Origin: Squalus acanthias
Lineage: Eukaryota
NCBI GenBank assembly: GCA_030390025.1
Contig: CM059431.1
Location: 100,380,001-100,444,000, forward strand
DNA length: 64,000 nt
Reading direction: 5' to 3'
The notes under the pieces are model-generated. The model was given only the letters and a program-made list of their open reading frames with translations, was not told the DNA's origin and did not search any database. Made by a program: the position numbers and the translations under genes. Shown here one piece after another: positions 938-62,794 of this stretch. The first letter of the stretch is position 1; each line of letters starts with the position of its first letter.

Positions 938-1066
938 ATGCGGAGATGCCGGTGTTGGGCTGGGGTGGACAAAAGTGAGAAGTCGCACAACACCAGGTTA
1001 TAGTCCAACAGTTTTATTTGAAATCACAAGCTTTCGGAGCTGCTGCCCCTTCGTCAGGTGAAGTGA
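938..1066 (-). mobile_element. Penelope-like short insertion (family B) with a minimal hammerhead motif at 1024-1061
   Basis: Minus strand reads tcac CTGACGA a ggggc agca gctcc GAAA gc tt gtga. Same element as 57512-57807. Confidence 0.65.
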
Positions 1067-1273: not shown

Positions 1274-1468
1274 TAAAAACAGAAAATACTGGAGATACTC
1301 AGCAGGGCAGGCAGCATCTGTGAAGAGAGAAACAGAGTTAACGTTTCAGGTCGATGACCTTTTGTCAGAACTGGAAAAAAGCAGGAAATGGAACAGATTT
1401 TTAAGCAAGTGCAGGGGCTGGGAAAGGCGGGGGGGGGGGGGGGATGAAAGAACAAAAGGGAAGGTCAA
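1274..1468 (-). mobile_element. Penelope-like short insertion (family A), degenerate hammerhead core
   Basis: 14-bp TSD tcagttatatgatt (1260-1273 / 1469-1482). Minus strand reads agtt CTGACAA a aggtc atc gacct GAAA cg tt aact. Confidence 0.65.
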
Positions 1469-5070: not shown

Positions 5071-5385
5071 GATTTCCCTACCCCTCGGTGTCATTTCCCC
5101 TTATAAATCTGTGACTCTAGTCATTCATCTCCTTAATGAGATCAAGATGGGTTTTAAGGTACGGTACTGCAGGAGCAGAGCTTTGATTTACTTGCTGTGC
5201 AACTCCCAAAGCGAATGTTAAAAAGGTTTTATTATTTGTGTGTGTGATGGGTGGCTAATTCTAAGGCAGCTTCTACCCCTCTCCAAAAGTCTTTTTAACT
5301 GTGCCGACTTTTAACACCACTAAAATCTATACTGGAATGTTCATCTGACAGTAATTGTAACAAATGTATTTGAATACATTGACAG

Positions 5386-5560
5386 AATCCTCGCCTCTGG
5401 AATCACTCTTGTGATCATCCCATTCCTTCCTGCATCTAACCTTTTCTTCAGAGTGGGGTTTGTGATTGCAGAGCGAGTCATCTATCTCTCCAGTGCTGGT
5501 TATTGCATGCTGTTGTCTTACGGCATTTGCATCTTGTCCAGACAAGGCAGGAGAATCAAG
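5386..5560 (+). CDS. TMTC4: TMTC4 coding exon
   Basis: cag| acceptor and |gtaggg donor. (R)ILASGITLVIIPFLPASNLFFRVGFVIAERVIYLSSAGYC...RIK contains the TMTC PFLPASNLFF.VGF..AER motif. Phase matches the previous exon. Confidence 0.95.
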
Positions 5561-6951: not shown

Positions 6952-7151
6952 NNNNNNNNNNNNNNNNNNNNNNNNNNNNNNNNNNNNNNNNNNNNNNNNN
7001 NNNNNNNNNNNNNNNNNNNNNNNNNNNNNNNNNNNNNNNNNNNNNNNNNNNNNNNNNNNNNNNNNNNNNNNNNNNNNNNNNNNNNNNNNNNNNNNNNNNN
7101 NNNNNNNNNNNNNNNNNNNNNNNNNNNNNNNNNNNNNNNNNNNNNNNNNNN
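6952..7151. other. Assembly gap (200 N)
   Basis: Run of exactly 200 N directly after a G/A-rich tandem repeat. Confidence 1.
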
Positions 7152-15013: not shown

Positions 15014-15108
15014 TTTCTCTCTCCACGGATGCTGCCTGGCCTGCTGAGTTTTTCCAGCGTTTTCTGTTGTTATTTCGGATTTCCAGCATCCGCAGTATTT
15101 TGCTATCG
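15014..15108 (+). mobile_element. Truncated Penelope-like family A insertion (no hammerhead core)
   Basis: 11-bp TSD tacattctatc (15003-15013 / 15109-15119). Ends about 50 nt before the TMTC4 last exon. Confidence 0.65.
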
Positions 15109-19529: not shown

Positions 19530-19986
19530 CAGGGCTGCCAACTCTGGTTGGCCATATTCCAGGAGCTTTCATTGCCTGAGCTTTCGCCTCCAACCGTCCC
19601 GCCCCTACACTCCTGCCATTGGTCACCCAACAGGTCCATCCTCATGGTGCCCGCCTTCCTGCACTAACTGGAAAGCAAAGACACTCCTCATTACCCGATA
19701 GCAAAATACTGCGGATGCTGGAAATCTGAAATAACCACAGAAAACGCTGGAAAACTCTGACGATATTGGATGAGTTTTGACTGTCAGTCAATCAAACAAC
19801 CTTCCCCCCACCCCTCCCCCTCCCCCAATCTCCAATAGTTTCCTAACTGATAAACAGAAGCGTTGAAGGAAATAATGCTTCATAAACACAAGGCCTCCAT
19901 GATTATCTCAAACAGCAGTCTCCCGGGAGAATCACTGCTCAATTCCAGGAGACTCCCGGGCAATCCTCGAGAGTTGGCAACTTCTA
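19530..19986. mobile_element. Non-autonomous DNA transposon (hAT-like termini); related partial copy at 19080-19392
   Basis: Termini agggctgccaactc / gagttggcaacttct. Contains a 60-bp family A Penelope-like fragment at 19698-19757. Confidence 0.5.
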
Positions 19987-22110: not shown

Positions 22111-22918
22111 GTGAGGCTGTGATGTGATAACTCAGGGATGGAACCTTGTACTCCCTCATCCGTAGGAGTTGCTGACTATATTTGGAGTCACAAGGGTTGG
22201 GGGGGGGGGCATAAGAAAATTGATTTGTGTCCCCAAGGATATCAATTGAATTCTGAAATGTAACTGATCAGTTAGATTGATAATCTAATGCTGTAAATTT
22301 CTATGATTCTAAGATTCTAGGATCTGTAGTACAGTTAGAAAAAGTACCTTTTAATTATGTCTCGATTACCTCTTGTGCTCAGTATGCCATATAATTTTCT
22401 AAACTTCTCAAATTTGTTTAATGTTAACGAGCATTAAATAAAGGTGTATGAGTGAAGTAGTAATTGTTTTTAAGGCATTTTAAGTAATTTAATGTTCAGC
22501 TTTTTGAGTTTTGGACTCAAGATGGCTCCTGGGCAGTCGGCTCCCTCGGGAGCTCCTCGCTGTGCACCTCTATCCTTAGCCTTCCTCTGTCACCCTTTGC
22601 CCTTTATGCTCCCAATCTCCTCCCCTCCATATCTTTAAGTTCCCTTGGCTCTAATAGCAGTGCATTTTAACCCTAACTACAAGTTAACTGCTAGTTTAAA
22701 GTTACCTGGGCCCACCTGCCCAATCCCCCGACCATGCCCGCTCTTTGTTTTTGCTCAGTGAGCACTGGGATCTTTGCTCAAATTTTGCATTAGAAAATTC
22801 CTGGGTTTCTCTGGACATCAAGACTACGCTCCTACACTGGACCACACCGTAAGACTCAGCTGCTGTGTCTCTGGTCGACTGGCCAATATTTGTCCCTCAG
22901 CCAACATCAGGAACGATA

Positions 22919-23306
22919 CGATAGCAAAATACTGCGGATGCTGGAAATCCGAAATAACAACAGAAAACGCTGGAAAAACTCAGCAGGCCAGGCAGCATCT
23001 GTGGAGAGAGAAACAAAGTTAACGTTTCAGGTCGAAGACCTTTCGTCAGAACTGGGATTAGTGTTTGGTCCGCTGCCACCTCTCTTCTAGGAATGCCCAC
23101 CTTGAAGAAGTTCTGCTCTTCTCTTCGACGGGACTTCCGTTTGTCTCTTCAACCTTGTTCATCTTCACTGCTTTCAGTTTAAATCTATTTCATTTCCTGC
23201 TTTTTTCCAGGTCTGATGAAAGGTCTTCGACCTGAAACGTTAACTCTGTTTCTCTCTCCACGGATACTGCCTGGCCTGCTGAGTTTTTCCAGCGTTTTCT
23301 GTTGTT
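22919..23306. mobile_element. Penelope-like family A inverted-repeat insertion with two hammerhead motifs
   Basis: 13-bp TSD atcaggaacgata (22906-22918 / 23307-23319). Inverted arms around a spacer. Hammerhead motifs at 23017-23053 (-) and 23209-23245 (+). Confidence 0.7.
23017..23053 (-). ncRNA. Minimal type I hammerhead ribozyme motif
   Basis: AGUU CUGACGA A AGGUC UUC GACCU GAAA CG UU^ AACU. Helix I AGUU/AACU, helix II AGGUC/GACCU, palindromic ACGU helix III. Confidence 0.65.
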
Positions 23307-24705
23307 ATCAGGAACGATAGCCTAGTTGTAATGTCACTGGGATAGTCATCCACAGGCCTGTACCTAATGATCTGGAGACAGGAGTTTAAATCCCACCAAT
23401 GCAGCTGAGGAATTTAAATTCAATTAAATCTGGAATAAAAAGCTTGTATCAGTAACCATGAAACTACAGGATTGTTGTAAAAACCCATCTGGAAATCTGC
23501 TGTCCTTACCTGGTCTGGCCTATATGTTGACCCTTAACTGCTCTCTGAAATGGACCTTCTCAAGGGTAATTCAGGGTGGTTGATTGCCAGCGACTCCCAC
23601 AAATGAATAATAAAAAAATCTAAACAGAAATCTTGTCATTATCACATTGTTGTTTGTGGGAGCTTGCTGTGTGTGATTTGGCTGCTGCATTTCCTATACG
23701 TTAAAACAGTGACTTCATTGGCTTTGGCATGTCCGGTGGTCGTGAAAGGTGCTGTAGAAATGCAAGTCCTTCTTTGTTGCTTATATTTTAGAGTAACTTT
23801 GATCAGCTCACCTGCCGAGCTGAGACTGGAACGGCCGATCCTGCAGCTTCTTCAGGTTCAGCTTCAGTCTGTTTCACTCTCCTGGGCTGAAGCACATTTC
23901 TCAGCCGCTTCTGGATCTGATGGTGACCTCCAGCTGCGCCGTCATCTTTCTTCCCCCGCCACCGATTCTGCTCACCTCCTGGATCTTCATTCCCACCGAA
24001 ATACCTCCGTCGGTGCGTCTTGCGATACTCTACCCTTGAAATAGCTTCAGGACTTCACTTGCCCGCACACCTGTCTCCGAACTTGGACCCTCGCCGACCC
24101 CACCCTACCTACCTCAGCTTTATCCCACCATGGGACCTCTGACTTTAACTCTGGACTCCCTCCTATTGTCTCCTATTTATTCCCAGTTTACTACCAGGAT
24201 ATATGGATCCTAATAATTGCTCTGTAAGCAGGCCTATGTAACTTGAGTTCTCCCTTTGTCCATTCGCGTGCATGTTTTGTCTGCCGCTCCGGACTCGAGC
24301 CCATCACTTCTATTTCCACTTTTTTCTCCCCCTTTTTTACTTTTTTCTCTCTATCCCTCCCTGACACCTCTCTCTCCTGTCATCATGCCACCTTTCATCT
24401 CTCCTCTCTCGGAAACTCTACCCTCCCAAATCCCTACCCCAACCCTTCAGCACTCCTCGACCTTCCTGCTCTCCTGCCACCGTCCCAGGCTTGACTCCCT
24501 CTTAGATAAGCCCACAGCTGCCCTCTGTGCCTGTGTTGGCATCCTACGAAGGCCCCATCGAGGCACTCGTCGCTGCCGTCTTACGAGCAGCAACCCCAAC
24601 TGTCCCATCCTCCTCTCTCGCTGACCTTCCCGCCCAACGTGCCCACTGGGGGCAAATCTTGCCAATCTCCTCCCCATCCAACTCATCCCCCCCAGCGCTG
24701 ACCCT

Positions 24706-28035: not shown

Positions 28036-28246
28036 AAAACAACCTACTGCACCTGGTATTCCCAGGCAGCCTCTCATTGAAATACTAACCAGGCCTGACT
28101 CTGCTTAGACTTTGAGATCAGACAAGATCGGGTGTGCCCATAATAGTGTGGCCCAACATTTCCCTTTAAGCTGTGTGCAATTTTGAATGGCCCGCGCGGC
28201 CCATTAACGGGCCAAAAAAAAATGACATTGGTGTGGTCAAATAGGC
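28036..28246 (-). pseudogene. 5S rRNA pseudogene (or 5S-derived SINE head) interrupted by a MITE
   Basis: Minus strand cccgatcttgtctgatctc...ctaagcagagtcaggcctggttagta...gcctgggaataccaggtgcagtagg follows vertebrate 5S rRNA with many substitutions. Confidence 0.85.
28154..28230. mobile_element. hAT-type MITE (internally deleted, 77 bp)
   Basis: Ends caacatttccc / gacattg. 8-bp TSD gtgtggcc / gtgtggtc. Confidence 0.7.
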
Positions 28247-34200: not shown

Positions 34201-34480
34201 GGTAGGACATTTAGGACTGAGATGAGGAGAAATTGCTTCACCTAGAGGGTGGTGAACCTGTGGAATTCTCTGCCACAGAAGGCTGTGGAGGCCAAGTCAC
34301 TGAATATATTTAAGGAGATAGATAGATTTCTAGACACAAAAGGCATCAAGGGGTATGGGGAGAGAGCGGGAATATGGTATTGAGATAGAGGATCAGCCAT
34401 GATCATATTGAATGGCGGAGCAGGCTCGAAGGACTGAATGGCCTACTCCTGCTCCTATTTTTCTATATTTCTATGTTTCT
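31240..34480. mobile_element. CR1 3' fragments (31240-31450 +, 31515-32200 +, 32620-32890 -, 33020-33600 +, 33730-34480 +)
   Basis: ORFs 31482-32099 and 33736-34245 carry LVRPHLEYCVQFWSP and related motifs. Confidence 0.88.
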
Positions 34481-34528
34481 TAACAAATTCGTACGAATGT
34501 GGTTCTGAATCAGCCAGTAGGATCTGTC

Positions 34529-34793
34529 TCTCAATGTCTCCTACTCTCTCCTGCTTTCTATCCCACCACTGACCTTCCCCTTTGTTCTTTCATCCCCTCC
34601 TCCTTTTCCCAGCTTTATACTTGCTTTAAATCTATTTCATTTCCTGCTTTTTTCCAGTTCTGACGAAAGGTCTTCGACTTGAAACGTTAACTCTGTTTCT
34701 CTCTCCACGGATGCTGCCTGGCCTGCTGAGTTTTTCCAGTGTTTTCTGTTGTTATTTCGGATTTCCAGCATCCGCAGTATTTTGCTATCATAC
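34529..34793 (+). mobile_element. Penelope-like family A insertion with a hammerhead motif at 34656-34692
   Basis: 11-bp TSD taggatctgtc (34518-34528 / 34794-34804). agtt CTGACGA a aggtc ttc gactt GAAA cg tt aact. Confidence 0.7.
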
Positions 34794-35956
34794 TAGGATC
34801 TGTCATCTGGGAATCTAATTTGCAGTCCTTCCCTGAAAGGATGCGTCTGCCATTCGCTGGGCTCTTCCCAGATACCCCCCAGCGGAGACCGGGAATTTCT
34901 TGCAGGTATCACAAGAGACAGGGCGTTTATTATTTAAGTCCACAGTCTCCTGGGCCAATGTCCTGCAGCACTGGAGGTCAAGAGCTTTCTTGTTTGAGCT
35001 AAGTTAAAACAATTCTTTAGGGGGGAGACTAAAACTCGGGGCCATAAACGTAAGATAGTCACTAATAGATCCAACAGGGAATTCAGGAGAAACTTCTTCA
35101 CCCAGAGAGTGGTGAGAATGTGGAACTTGCTACCACAGGGAGTAGTTGAGGTGAATAGCATAGATGCATTTAAGGGGAAGCTAGATAAACACATGAGGGA
35201 GAAAGGAATAGAAGGATATGGTGATAGGGTGAGATGAAGAGGGGTGGGTGGAGGCTCGTGTGGAGCAGAAACACCGGCATCGACCAGTTGGGCCGAATGG
35301 CCTGTTTCTACATAACAAGAATTAGGAGCAGGAGTCGGCCGTACGGCCCCTCGAGCCTGCTCCGCCATTCAATAAGATCATGGCTGATCTTCGACCTCAA
35401 CTCCACTTTCCTGCCCTATGCCCGTACCCCTTGATTCCCTTAGATCCTGTGCTGTAATTTCTATGTACAGTACAAAAATATTGAGCGTTTATACTTAAAA
35501 CATGTACAGTGCAAGAACCTTGAGCGTATCGACTCATAGAACAGGAGGCCCATTGAGTCTGCGCCGGCTCTTTCGAAGATTAGATAAGACTTGTACAGGA
35601 AGCCAGGCAATGAACTTTTGTAAAATGATGTGGGGTTAGGGTTAACCGAAGGGTAGATGGGGGGAGCTCCTCGTCTTTGTTCTTTCAGCTTAGGTGCCAT
35701 TTTTTTTGTCCACTAGAATAAATGTATTGTTGTTTTAACCAAATTAATTTTGTGTACTTTGGTACAGTGTTTAGAAAAGACTTGAAATGAAACTCGCCAA
35801 GTGTCACGCCAGCATGTATAATGGGAGATTCTGGCTTTATAAGGTTCAGGATATGATTTCAAAGCTTTTATTGTCTTCAGTGTTGGAGCATGATTACTTC
35901 AAGATGTTGCAGCCTGCTTTCTTGGACCTTGATGAGTTCTGTCAAAATTCAAATGC

Positions 35957-45357: not shown

Positions 45358-45770
45358 GGGGTATGGCAGCATAGTGGTTATGTTACTGGACTAGTAATCC
45401 AGAGGCCTGGACTAATGATCCAGAGATGTGAGTTCAAATCCCACCACGGCAGCTGGGAAATTTAAATTCAGTTAATTAAATAAATCTGGAATAAAAAGCT
45501 AGTGTCAGTAATGGTGACCATGAAACTACCGGATTGTTGTAAAAACCCATCTGGTTCACTAATGTCCTTTAGGGAAGGAAATCTGCCGTCCTTACCCGGT
45601 CTGGCCTATATGTGACTCCAGACCCACAGGAATGTTGTTGACTCTTCACTGAAATGGCCCAGCAAGCCACTCAGTTGTATAAGGCGGCTCACCACCACCT
45701 TCTCGAGGGCAATTAGGAATGGGCAATAATTTGCCAGCGACGCCCACATCCCGTGAATGAATAAATAAAA
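45358..45770 (+). mobile_element. Second tRNA-derived SINE family (degenerate copy at 23320-23615)
   Basis: A-box-like agcatagtgg and B box gagttcaaatccc. Its 3' tail aaggcggctcaccaccaccttctc is shared with LINE fragments at 9650-9901 and 37815-37985. Confidence 0.7.
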
Positions 45771-56540: not shown

Positions 56541-57511
56541 GATTCTCAAAGTCCAGGCTTATTGCACATGAAGAATAGCCACTTGTATGAACTGTACCCC
56601 AGCAAAGAGTAATGCATTGAGAGGAAAAATTGCTGATGAAACCTTCACTGCAGTCAGAGGCTGGTAAAGTGCATTCTCACTAGTGTCAGCTGTGGCTCAG
56701 TGGGTAGCACTCTCGGAGTCAGAAAGTTGTGGGTTCGAGTCCCACTCCAGGAGACTTGAGCACATAATCTAGGCTGACACTCCCAGTGCAGTACTGAGGG
56801 AGTGCCGACTTTCAGGCAAGATGTTAAACCGTGGTCCCATCTGCCCTCTCGGATGAACGTAAAAGATCCCACGGCCACTATTTTGAAGAGGAGCAGGGGA
56901 GGTCTCCCGGTGTCCTGGCCGATATTTATCCTTCAACTAACCACGAAAAAAATATTAAAATCTGGTCATTATCATTGCTGTTTGTGGGAGCTTGCTGTGC
57001 GCAAATTAGCTGCTGCGTTTCCTACATTATAACAGTGACTACACTTCAAAAAAAGTACTTCATTGGCTGTAAAGCGCTTTGGGACTTCGAGGGTGTGAAA
57101 GGCGCTGGAGAAATGCAAGTCCTTTCTTGTCACGAGTGTGGTAAATTTTCATCTTTACTGCAATGGGCCATACTCTGACTGACTATTCTAGAACCCGGTC
57201 GATTTTCATTCCTTGAAGTCTACGAGCATTTACCCTTCCCCGTGTATTTCAGTAATGCTTGGTGCAATATAACTGAGCATTGGTTTTATCCCGTGGTATT
57301 CTATTCCTTTCCTGGTCTGTTCTACCGTTCTGTTAAATGTATCTAAATAAGCAATTGTGATCGAGGGGAATTGTGTGATTATAGCCAGGAAATTGCTGCT
57401 GTCATTATTTGTGGACACTTGCTCAATATGTGTACGCATCGACAGCCTTTTCTCTTTTAACAGCATTGCTAACTTTAAAGAAAACAGGTGAACCTCACTC
57501 ACTAATTTCTA

Positions 57512-57807
57512 TGATGCGGAGATGTGTTGGACTGGGGTGGACAAATGTGAGAAGTCGCACAACACCAGGTTATAGTCCAACAGGTTTATTTGAAATCACA
57601 AGCTTTCGGAGCGGCTGCTCCTTCATCAGGTGAAGTGAAGAGATGCATATAGGCACAGCATATATAGTCAGAGAACATGTTCTCTGTCTATATATGCTGT
57701 GCCTATATGCATCTCTTCACTTCACCTGACGAAGGAGCAGCGCTCCGAAAGCTTGTGATTTCAAATAAAGCTGTTGGACTATAACCTGGTGTTGTGCGAC
57801 TTCTCAC
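57512..57807. mobile_element. Penelope-like family B palindromic insertion
   Basis: Loopless palindrome 57547-57807 centred on aaca|tgtt (57677/57678). Flanking direct repeat ctcactaatttcta (57498-57511 / 57803-57816). Confidence 0.75.
57722..57758 (+). ncRNA. Minimal type I hammerhead ribozyme motif
   Basis: UCAC CUGACGA A GGAGC AGC GCUCC GAAA GC UU^ GUGA. Helix I UCAC/GUGA, helix II GGAGC/GCUCC, palindromic AGCU helix III. Confidence 0.65.
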
Positions 57808-57903
57808 TAATTTCTAAGCGTATGTTTTCAAATGCTCCTGTTGTTCCCCCACACCCCCCGCCCTGTTTTAACCAGCATGGTTTTTGTACTTCCTGTAGGC
57901 AGC

Positions 57904-58377
57904 ATGACCAATGTGTTTGTATATGGCACCCTCAAGAAAGGCCAACCCAACCACCATTACATGATCGATGGAACCAAGGGGAAGGGAAAGTACTGTGGCA
58001 AGGGTTGCACGGATGAGAAGTACCCACTGGTGATTGCAGGGAAATATAACATTCCCTTTTTGCTCAACGTGCCAGGAATGGGACAGGAAATCGCCGGAGA
58101 GATTTATTTAGTCGATGACCAACTGCTACAGTTCCTCGATGAGTTTGAGAGTTGTCCAGAAGTTTACCAGCGCAGACCTGTGGGGGTCCGCCTACTGGAG
58201 TGGGAAGATAAAGATGACACGCTGGGAGTGAAGCCAGGCGCTGACGGAATGCTAACGTGCTTTTTGTACAGCACAAATACCTATGATCAAGACTGGTTAA
58301 AACTTCCTTACTATAACAATTATGATCCCTTTGGGATGCGCGGGCAGGCAAAGTACGTCCTACGTGAGAGTAGGTAA
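57904..58377 (+). CDS. GGACT: Gamma-glutamylaminecyclotransferase (A2LD1), 157 aa core in a single exon
   Basis: MTNVFVYGTLKKGQPNH...YPLVIAGKYNIPFLL...GEIY...LDEFESCPEVYQR. Has the YGTL GGCT-fold motif and the conserved FES glutamate. Splice acceptors at 57874-57875 and 57897-57898. Sits between TMTC4 and PCCA, as in other vertebrates. Confidence 0.96.
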   Translation: MTNVFVYGTLKKGQPNHHYMIDGTKGKGKYCGKGCTDEKYPLVIAGKYNIPFLLNVPGMGQEIAGEIYLVDDQLLQFLDEFESCPEVYQRRPVGVRLLEWEDKDDTLGVKPGADGMLTCFLYSTNTYDQDWLKLPYYNNYDPFGMRGQAKYVLRESR

Positions 58378-61992: not shown

Positions 61993-62794
61993 CTAAACAA
62001 ACAAAGAGAGTCAAGAGGGGTAGACATGTTTACAGTTGTACACAGGTAACACTCCCATCAACAATCGAAACAATGCTCTTGCCTACAAACAGTGAGGAGC
62101 AAACACATTTACGCAACAGGGTAATGCAGCGTACCATTGTTTTTTCCAGTACCAGATCATCCACTCACCGTTCAGTTTAAAGTTTAATAAATATTAATAC
62201 TTAGTAATTTAATCGCTCCTGCCCTCCAGTCTAACCACCCTTTTTGTCCCTGGTTCTGCACTTGCTTAAAAACTGATAAATCTCTAACTTCTTCACCTGA
62301 AACCTTAACTCTGTTTCTCTCTCTACAGATGCTGCCTGACCTGCTGAGTATTTCCAGCATTTTCTGTTTTTATTTCAGATTTCCAGCCTCCGCAGTATCT
62401 TGCTTTCGTTTTCAGAGTCATTGTAATCTGGTTAGAATTCAACTTGGTTTCCAATCTACATTTCTCCTCATCTTAAGCTGCTTTTGAATTTTCAGTATTT
62501 TAATTACACCACCCGTTAAGATGGGAGGGAGGGAGGAACATATTCAAGGTGCATTTTGTTCAGATACAGTGAACTCAAAATGCAGCTTGCGGTGGGGGAG
62601 GGGGGCGGTAAAGTACTACCAGAAAGGTTACGACACAAGGCAAAACTAGTGCAACTTTTAGAAATTGTACTTTTCAATAATATGATCTGGCTCATACATC
62701 TGATGAGCATTTTTATTTAAAATTTTAAAAAAGTTACATTTTACTTTCTTCTGCCTCAAACAAGAATAGTTAATTACATGCCACTTGTGAGCAG

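Follow-up and report, generated by a model that had tools for sequence, protein, structure and literature searches.

Two families of hammerhead-bearing repeats in the Squalus acanthias genome are very probably the 3′ ends of divergent Penelope-like elements

Minimal hammerhead ribozymes in the pseudo-long terminal repeats (pLTRs) of metazoan Penelope-like elements (PLEs) were described by Cervera and de la Pena in 2014 (PMC4209133), with single minimal PLE motifs showing no in vitro cleavage and dimers cleaving weakly. The hammerhead of the Anolis PLE cleaved only with the PLE protein present, and catalytic mutants of this motif left insertion in vitro unaffected (PMC11167929). PLE insertions have been described to show 5′ truncation, partial tandems forming pLTRs, and an adjacent inverted 5′-truncated copy, as well as a 30-40-bp tail that is often present at one end only (PMC8557442); this tail has been traced to two reverse-transcription start sites, with extension from both target strands (PMC11167929). 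A 2026 preprint by Li et al. covers one chondrichthyan, for tandem retrozymes (10.64898/2026.07.22.740005). Here we report on the element at 22919-23306 of a 64,000-nt stretch of Squalus acanthias DNA (assembly GCA_030390025.1, contig CM059431.1, positions 100,380,001 to 100,444,000 of the forward strand; hereafter the window, whose numbering is used throughout), together with the other window copies of two repeat families, A and B, for which an earlier reading of the sequence (the original prediction) had proposed minimal hammerhead motifs. We conclude, with a probability of about 0.9, that each family represents the 3′ end of its own autonomous PLE encoding reverse transcriptase (RT) and GIY-YIG, the two PLEs being divergent, and that the complete window copies carry the known minimal type I hammerhead.

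The family A copy at 34529-34793 has many matches at 96-98% identity over its whole 265 nt in the 3.7-Gb assembly (42 matches scored of 3591 first-look candidates), and the family A tail repeats head-to-tail every 3218 bp at positions 56071142, 56074360, and 56077578 of contig C17. This tandem array (L031) contains open reading frame (ORF) pieces with the RT motif YIDD and the GIY-YIG-type motif LYIGET. Of 7999 candidates scored for the first of these pieces, at least 1769 are homologues at E ≤ 1e-5; the top ones come from sharks and rays, and many bear precomputed RVT_1 and GIY-YIG domains. With one 806-aa homologue, pieces from L031 share 46% identity across 355 aa (E = 7e-101) and 47% across 325 aa (E = 1e-100); in Pfam this homologue scores 25.0 bits for GIY-YIG (cut-off 22.6) and 29.4 bits for RVT_1 (cut-off 29.6), and a shark homologue that is 66% identical scores 32.9 bits for RVT_1. 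The family A tail starts about 0.3 kb past the ORF end and runs to ...GCTATCG, with the next unit following directly, and tblastn placed an ORF directly upstream of the tail in 18 of 27 family A loci. For family B, a PLE ORF homologue was found by tblastn upstream of the tail and on its strand in 9 of 30 loci; these homologues are 29-44% identical to the family A protein, and one of them aligns across 287 aa with the 806-aa homologue (33% identity, E = 2e-44). The original prediction had considered both families Penelope-derived and had proposed linkage to PLE ORFs as a test of this; the linkage proved positive for A as well as B, and helix I covaries inside family B (see below). The 3′ region of both families is a 3′ untranslated region or pLTR with a minimal hammerhead and an optional 35-nt tail. 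In the tandem array we also observed that the frame running through the hammerhead, the tail, and the 5′ region of the next unit is open for 225 codons (L031 5244-5921 and 8462-9139). The AUG within the hammerhead core CUGAUGA was considered as a start of the PLE ORF and rejected, as the N-terminus of the homologue lies about 170 codons further down (a weak match, E = 0.068).

The focal element represents a discrete 388-bp insertion composed of three pieces of the tandem unit (in L031 numbering, a reversed 5268-5404, 5406-5529, and 5239-5367), flanked by a target-site duplication (TSD):

22906-22918, left TSD, ATCAGGAACGATA, an exact 13-nt direct repeat of 23307-23319
22919-23055, minus strand, family A inverted arm, a reversed PLE 3′ end with 97.8% identity to L031 5268-5404
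23057-23180, plus strand, PLE 5′ region of 124 nt, 97.6% identity to L031 5406-5529
23178-23306, plus strand, family A 3′ region without the 35-nt tail, 96.9% identity to L031 5239-5367
23307-23319, right TSD, ATCAGGAACGATA, matching 22906-22918

The segment L031 5406-5529 is the first 124 nt past the unit end, i.e., after the tail end in the tandem array. The 35-nt tail of the focal element (22919-22953) lies inside the minus-strand arm, the other arm having no tail; the inverted arms (22954-23055 and 23207-23308, 102 nt each) are 95% complementary. A 29-mer spanning the junction between the 5′ region and the 3′ region matched only itself in the 3.7-Gb genome, even with one mismatch; because this junction is unique, 22919-23306 is a one-off complex product and not a propagating deletion derivative. 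Overall, the window copies are dead insertion products, either 5′-truncated or inverted-dimer.

Searches of the window by blastn with the focal element and 57500-57820 as queries recovered all copies named in the original prediction, with family A matches at 1274-1400, 15014-15108, 19696-19754, 34625-34789, and 62290-62408, and family B matches at 936-1066 and as the inverted dimer in 57500-57820. These copies are:

938-1066, minus strand, family B copy with tail, cut just 5′ of the hammerhead (1061-1024)
1274-1468, minus strand, older family A 5′-truncated copy without tail, 88-90% identity, TSD CAGTTATATGATT at 1261-1273 and 1469-1481
15014-15108, plus strand, family A copy with tail, cut 7 nt downstream of the predicted cleavage site, TSD TACATTCTATC
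19696-19754, minus strand, family A terminal fragment of 59 nt (blastn), comprising the tail and a few bases, with no hammerhead
34529-34793, plus strand, family A 5′-truncated copy with tail, TSD TAGGATCTGTC at 34518-34528 and 34794-34804
57512-57807, family B inverted dimer with hammerheads at 57633-57596 (minus strand) and 57722-57758 (plus strand), found by blastn, motif scan, and descriptor
62290-62408, plus strand, family A copy cut inside helix II, 90% identity

In the copies at 15014, 19696, and 62290, the truncation falls inside or downstream of the motif. The arms of the family B dimer are 96.9% alike over 262 nt and near-symmetrical, meeting at a palindromic centre, and a tail of about 35 nt is present on the left arm only. 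The existence of two inverted dimers (22919-23306 and 57512-57807), as originally proposed, was confirmed; the further proposal of 11-14-bp TSDs in most copies held in part, since TSDs could be read for six copies but span 8-14 nt (13 nt at 22919 and at 1274, 11 nt at 15014, 11-13 nt at 34529, 9-14 nt at 57512, and only 8 nt at 938), and no TSD was found for the copies at 19696 and 62290. Just upstream of the family A copy at 34529, another very high-copy repeat occupies 34300-34490; its summed contig depth is huge in four Logan-contig runs, and the unique flank at 34804-35000 is nearly bare.

A scan of both strands of the window for CUGANGA...GAAA gave 13 matches, six of which came from the two families (A at plus 23213, minus 23049, and plus 34660; B at plus 57726, minus 57629, and minus 1057). 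These six motifs share a layout of a 4-bp helix I, CUGANGA, an extra A, a 5-bp helix II, GAAA, a palindromic ACGU or AGCU, U/C, and the helix I partner. Parsed, the family A motifs read AGUU-CUGAYGA-A-AGGUC-UUC-GACCU-GAAA-CG-UU followed by AACU, and those of family B read UCAC-CUGAYGA-A-GGAGC-AGC(N)-GCUCC-GAAA-GC-UU followed by GUGA. Both helices thus differ between the families (AGUU/AACU vs. UCAC/GUGA; AGGUC/GACCU vs. GGAGC/GCUCC), and inspection of the parsed columns showed that both sides had changed in seven of the nine pairs with pairing kept, in agreement with the original prediction of two families with distinct sequences and one fold. A strict descriptor (4-bp helix I, core, bulge of 0-1, helix II of 4-8 bp, GAAA, self-complementary dinucleotide, U, H) gave five matches in the window and no match in any of the 200 shuffles (dinucleotide) that were run; since the five matches are copies of two families, they represent two independent events only. 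The family A motifs are:

23017-23053, minus strand, family A minimal hammerhead, AGUU-CUGACGA-A-AGGUC-UUC-GACCU-GAAA-CG-UU-AACU, passing the strict descriptor
23209-23245, plus strand, family A minimal hammerhead with core CUGAUGA and a helix I G-A mismatch (AGGU/AACU)
34656-34692, plus strand, family A minimal hammerhead, helix II with a G·U due to a private C-to-U change, within the strict descriptor matches

Position 34679 is C in nearly all contigs aligned from the four Logan-contig runs. A covariance model built from family B scored the window B copies at 69.2 bits (938-1066) and at 68.1 and 68.3 bits (57512-57807).

Conservation was assessed in copies sampled by seeds downstream of the motif, which avoids selection on the motif itself, and parsed from the fixed 3′ side. 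The family A sample contained 36 copies (30 genomic and six from the window), 24 of them spanning the whole motif, and the family B sample contained 34 copies (31 genomic and three from the window), 32 of them spanning it; three truncated rows in which flank sequence matched the pattern (L083, one arm of L088, and window 62264) were excluded from the counts. Among the complete copies, exact CUGANGA is present in 19/24 of A and 31/32 of B, the GAAA box in 23/24 and 31/32, and the extra unpaired A after A9 in 24/24 and 32/32, so that the core conservation expected at the outset was found across genomic copies. The sole freely variable core position in these 56 copies is N7 (C 16 and U 8 in A; C 12, G 14, A 4, and U 2 in B), and position 17 is U in 20 and C in 4 copies of A and U in 27 and C in 5 copies of B, with G in 0/56. 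The helix III palindrome is ACGU in 23/24 of A and AGCU in 32/32 of B; loop II of family B ranges from 3 to 8 nt with the stem maintained. As a joint MAFFT alignment of A and B shifted A by one column in the 3′ half, pairs were counted per family; 95.2% of cells pair in family B (23.7-49.0% with the partner slid) and 97.9% in family A (3.2-47.1% with the partner slid). One helix I pair in family B is C-G in 13 rows and U-A in seven, with one U·G intermediate and two others, and the 10.1-11.1 pair is G-C in 23/23 distinct rows. The covariation score observed for family B was reached by 0/500 shuffles, with the caveat that related sequences may beat every shuffle without any structure.

Genome-wide, exact core patterns number 46,869 for family B and 36,717 for family A, 83,586 together, with 0 control matches. 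An exact 24-mer of the family B tail occurs 98,558 times (49,232 + 49,326; 0 control matches) and one of the family A tail 30,093 times; the tail is present in 11/30 of the sampled genomic A copies and 11/31 of the B copies. All copies have a constant 3′ end and scattered 5′ ends, as expected from target-primed reverse transcription. Among the first 100 listed B seeds (contig C1), 62 lie in divergent (-,+) pairs within 3.5 kb (17 pairs within 300 bp, i.e., 34 seeds, and 14 more within 3.5 kb), and only one convergent pair is present; about one third of the family B tails among these seeds are thus in tight inverted dimers, for which hairpins with arms of about 40-130 bp are predicted. In these tight divergent pairs (34 of the first 100 listed seeds), spacings are 75-268 bp and many arms are cut downstream of the hammerhead; their near-symmetrical arms suggest a product of snap-back or two-strand priming. 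We also observed thousands of contigs with a likeness of 88% or more to the family A tail (34636-34803) in the runs X1, X5, X7, and X19, which are labelled as four different organisms; by these labels, which are guesses, family A is common to several species or predates their split.

Several observations weigh against the reading of A and B as ends of RT- and GIY-YIG-encoding PLEs with a minimal hammerhead. The ORF pieces of L031 itself score 19.2 and 20.2 bits for GIY-YIG, below the cut-off of 22.6, and no RVT_1 (Pfam) match was found in the elements' own ORF pieces, so that the domain assignment is by homology; the tandem copies examined carry frame breaks, with the ORF split across three overlapping frames. 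Hammerheads are represented in Rfam by the type I, type II, type III, HH9, and HH10 families. None of these models matched anywhere in the window, either at gathering score or at E ≤ 10, and none matched 76-base stretches around a B and an A motif at E ≤ 10, a miss that is expected for a motif without helix III; the originally proposed check with hammerhead models therefore succeeded with the descriptor and failed with Rfam. The family B covariance model scores family A at noise (8.3 bits, E = 9.6), and as this model is blind to A, it is the descriptor and inspection, rather than any model score, that support the shared fold. Among the window motifs, 23209-23245 fails the strict descriptor solely through its helix I mismatch, and the copy at 1274-1468 has a degenerate core, CUGACAA (G8 to A). 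Family A shows no two-sided compensatory change, only one-sided wobble-compatible changes, and 500/500 shuffles reach its covariation score, so that it gives no covariation evidence itself; it also has no conserved G-C at 10.1-11.1, this pair being A-U in 17/21 and G·U in 4/21 distinct rows. By predicted energy, a double hammerhead is less stable than two monomers (-10.9 vs. -19.0 kcal/mol for A; -20.7 vs. -23.2 kcal/mol for B), and in the family A monomer of lowest energy, core bases are paired to the region around the cleavage site. The motif could also be conserved because RT requires it for recognising the 3′ end, rather than for catalysis.

With A and B taken as PLE 3′ ends, the 5′-truncated window copies would stem from target-primed reverse transcription that began at the constant 3′ end, and the other copies would represent PLE-typical inverted structures with 3′ ends outward and the tail on one arm. 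The motif would fold with a 4-bp helix I, CUGANGA, an unpaired A between 9 and 10.1, a 5-bp helix II, GAAA, and a palindromic helix III, and published work suggests that the parent RNA would be cleaved after GUU or GUC in family A and after CUU or CUC in family B. This cleavage would occur in two situations only: in read-through or tandem transcripts, two sense motifs may pair via ACGU or AGCU as helix III and be cut 3′ of position 17, or a motif may be helped by the protein of the element. The isolated monomers and hairpin-forming inverted dimers of the window are most likely catalytically silent. Near-perfect hairpins are predicted for both inverted dimers (-212 kcal/mol for 22919-23306 and -238.6 kcal/mol for 57512-57807), burying the motifs, and because an inverted dimer consists of one sense and one antisense copy, no sense-sense dimer is possible; the earlier notion that such dimers aid dimeric cleavage is therefore not supported.

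Three other explanations were weighed against these data. A and B might be dedicated non-autonomous, retrozyme-like short units that are mobilised in trans by PLEs and whose transcripts self-cleave as dimers, an idea close to the separate non-autonomous families of the original prediction. Tail copies far exceed the possible number of full-length elements (98,558 and 30,093 exact 24-mers for B and A), the focal element joins the 5′ region straight to the 3′ region with the ORF missing, and the 2026 preprint argues for an origin of vertebrate non-LTR retrozymes from PLE pLTRs (10.64898/2026.07.22.740005). However, the same tails also occur immediately after PLE ORFs, the scatter of 5′ ends is that predicted by random truncation, and the focal 5′/3′ junction occurs once in 3.7 Gb; moreover, blastn detected no head-to-tail array of short units in the window, although such arrays are a defining trait of non-LTR retrozymes, and the inverted dimers yield a sense and an antisense motif in a predicted hairpin. 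We therefore regard dedicated short units as very unlikely, the copies being better explained as 3′ ends of autonomous PLEs. Extremely improbable, in our judgment, is that the inverted dimers are hairpin RNA genes (precursors of microRNAs or small interfering RNAs) and not transposon debris. The predicted hairpin energies would suit such genes, as would sub-threshold matches of 57544-57810 to the Rfam microRNA-precursor models MIR821 (138.8 bits) and mir-4536 (57.5 bits), which are plant and animal models. Yet these scores are under the gathering cut-offs (249 and 76) and equal on both strands, which is expected of any long perfect palindrome, and the matches were rejected as a long-palindrome artefact; in addition, the arms are PLE tails with TSD, and the 34 of the first 100 listed B seeds in tight pairs point to an insertion by-product.

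A somewhat unlikely reading, which leaves the PLE origin in place, is that the motif is not a working ribozyme but an RNA structure through which, e.g., the PLE protein recognises the 3′ end or pLTR, or else a passenger parasitising PLEs. This would fit the A-U or G·U that family A has in place of G10.1-C11.1 and the active dimer not being thermodynamically favoured; the truncated copies also show no pile-up of 5′ ends at the cleavage site, in a small sample. In the Anolis system, besides the catalytic mutants without effect on insertion in vitro, no RNA-seq reads were reported to start or end at the cleavage site (PMC11167929), and the hammerhead-less Naiads are described as proliferating well, with the suggestion that hammerheads may just parasitise PLEs (PMC8557442). 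Nevertheless, the pattern of variation fits catalysis, with N7 free, the other core bases fixed, and position 17 never G, while helix III remains palindromic and helix I shows compensatory change; in the Anolis motif, C3G and G8C abolished cleavage, which the double mutant partly restored (PMC11167929).

Regarding the host sequence, the original prediction placed the plus-strand copies in the sense of a GGACT pre-mRNA. A plus-strand exon supports this in part, and a pre-mRNA reaching the family A copies at 23 and 34 kb is putative only:

57904-58377, plus strand, GGACT-domain coding exon, PF06094 match at 57913-58302 (75.9 bits, E = 9.8e-18)

The exon has an ATG at 57904, preceded by a pyrimidine-rich tract ending in AG at 57897-57898, a putative splice acceptor; the family B dimer at 57512-57807 ends 91 nt upstream of this putative acceptor and 97 nt upstream of the ATG. 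Elsewhere in the window, 28041-28159 (minus strand) matches 5S rRNA in Rfam (44.9 bits vs. a gathering score of 38; E = 4.5e-06) with several non-canonical pairs; it is isolated, either between genes or within an intron, and could be a pseudogene of 5S rRNA or a short interspersed nuclear element (SINE) derived from it. A sub-threshold tRNA-like Rfam match at 45368-45444 (plus strand; 21.9 bits vs. 29) has a long insertion between its anticodon-arm and T-arm parts and is probably a tRNA-derived SINE; sequence resembling it follows the focal element at about 23330-23420. A run of 200 N at 6952-7151 marks an assembly gap.

These data add two PLE lineages with hammerheads, both present in very many copies, from a cartilaginous fish, and point to inverted dimers, in the tens of thousands, that would form hairpins within genes or close to them. 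The copies also provide a natural variant series for what a minimal hammerhead needs: N7 occurs as any of the four bases, loop II ranges over 3-8 nt, the 10.1-11.1 pair is G-C, A-U, or G·U, and helix I has C-G or U-A. Beyond this, it is an improbable proposition that the genome holds one of the largest ribozyme-motif loads among vertebrates (at least 83,586 sequence-intact motifs), that the hairpins of family B dimers, if processed, turn these PLE insertion by-products into a prominent supply of double-stranded and small RNAs across the genome in sharks, and that the lack of G10.1-C11.1 among the 36,717 family A cores could mean that this motif is retained, perhaps, for a role other than cleavage.

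Non-LTR retrozymes of animals were reportedly described by de la Pena and co-workers in 2020 (PMC7229834). Like these, the repeats reported here are hammerhead-bearing, non-coding, and related to PLE pLTRs; retrozymes, however, form head-to-tail arrays of short units with canonical type I hammerheads and give rise to circular RNAs, whereas truncated copies in the window are scattered and the others are inverted dimers. A full-text search of the literature, limited to main texts and not to supplements such as those of PMC4209133 and of the 2026 preprint, which possibly list shark or high-copy cases, yielded no printed account of the two shark families; its one match, a review, uses the word shark for the shape of the fold. 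Among PLEs, Poseidon PAc of Anolis carolinensis (Frangieh et al. 2024, PMC11167929) has the same pLTR-ORF-pLTR tandem with a hammerhead in the pLTR and the same optional tail of 30-40 bp, and its two-strand extension fits the outward inverted arms seen here. However, the PAc ORF begins at hammerhead stem II, whereas here the N-terminus of the homologue lies about 0.5 kb downstream of the motif; PAc was studied biochemically and the shark elements by sequence. The PLEs of Craig et al. 2021 (PMC8557442) resemble the shark elements in high 5′ truncation, pLTR tandems, an inverted 5′-truncated neighbour, and a tail at one end; unlike ours, the set described there consists mainly of Naiad and Chlamys elements, without canonical hammerheads.

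The closest likeness is to the minimal hammerheads of PMC4209133, which are likewise type I with no real helix III, a palindromic 15.2-16.2, and a helix I of 4-5 bp. As described there, consensus families with covariation occur inside one genome, most motifs are single and come from truncated PLEs, opposite-strand pairs lie 100-700 bp apart, and tandem copies about 3 kb apart flank an RT ORF. Three differences from that description were found (PMC4209133): helix II is 5 bp long here and 7-8 bp long in the Schistosoma families of that study; the 10.1-11.1 pair, a highly conserved G-C there, is A-U or G·U in family A; and the 83,586 cores compare with about 4,000 in coelacanth and about 9,000 in Xenopus, numbers termed remarkable there and exceeded here about ten-fold. 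The motif class has been known since 2014, and the TSD, the inverted arms, and the one-sided tail follow published PLE insertion features (PMC4209133, PMC8557442, PMC11167929); the departures from the described class are the 5-bp helix II, the A-U or G·U at 10.1-11.1 of family A, and the roughly ten-fold copy number, and the shark repeats are an ordinary, though very abundant, example of the known PLE hammerhead class.

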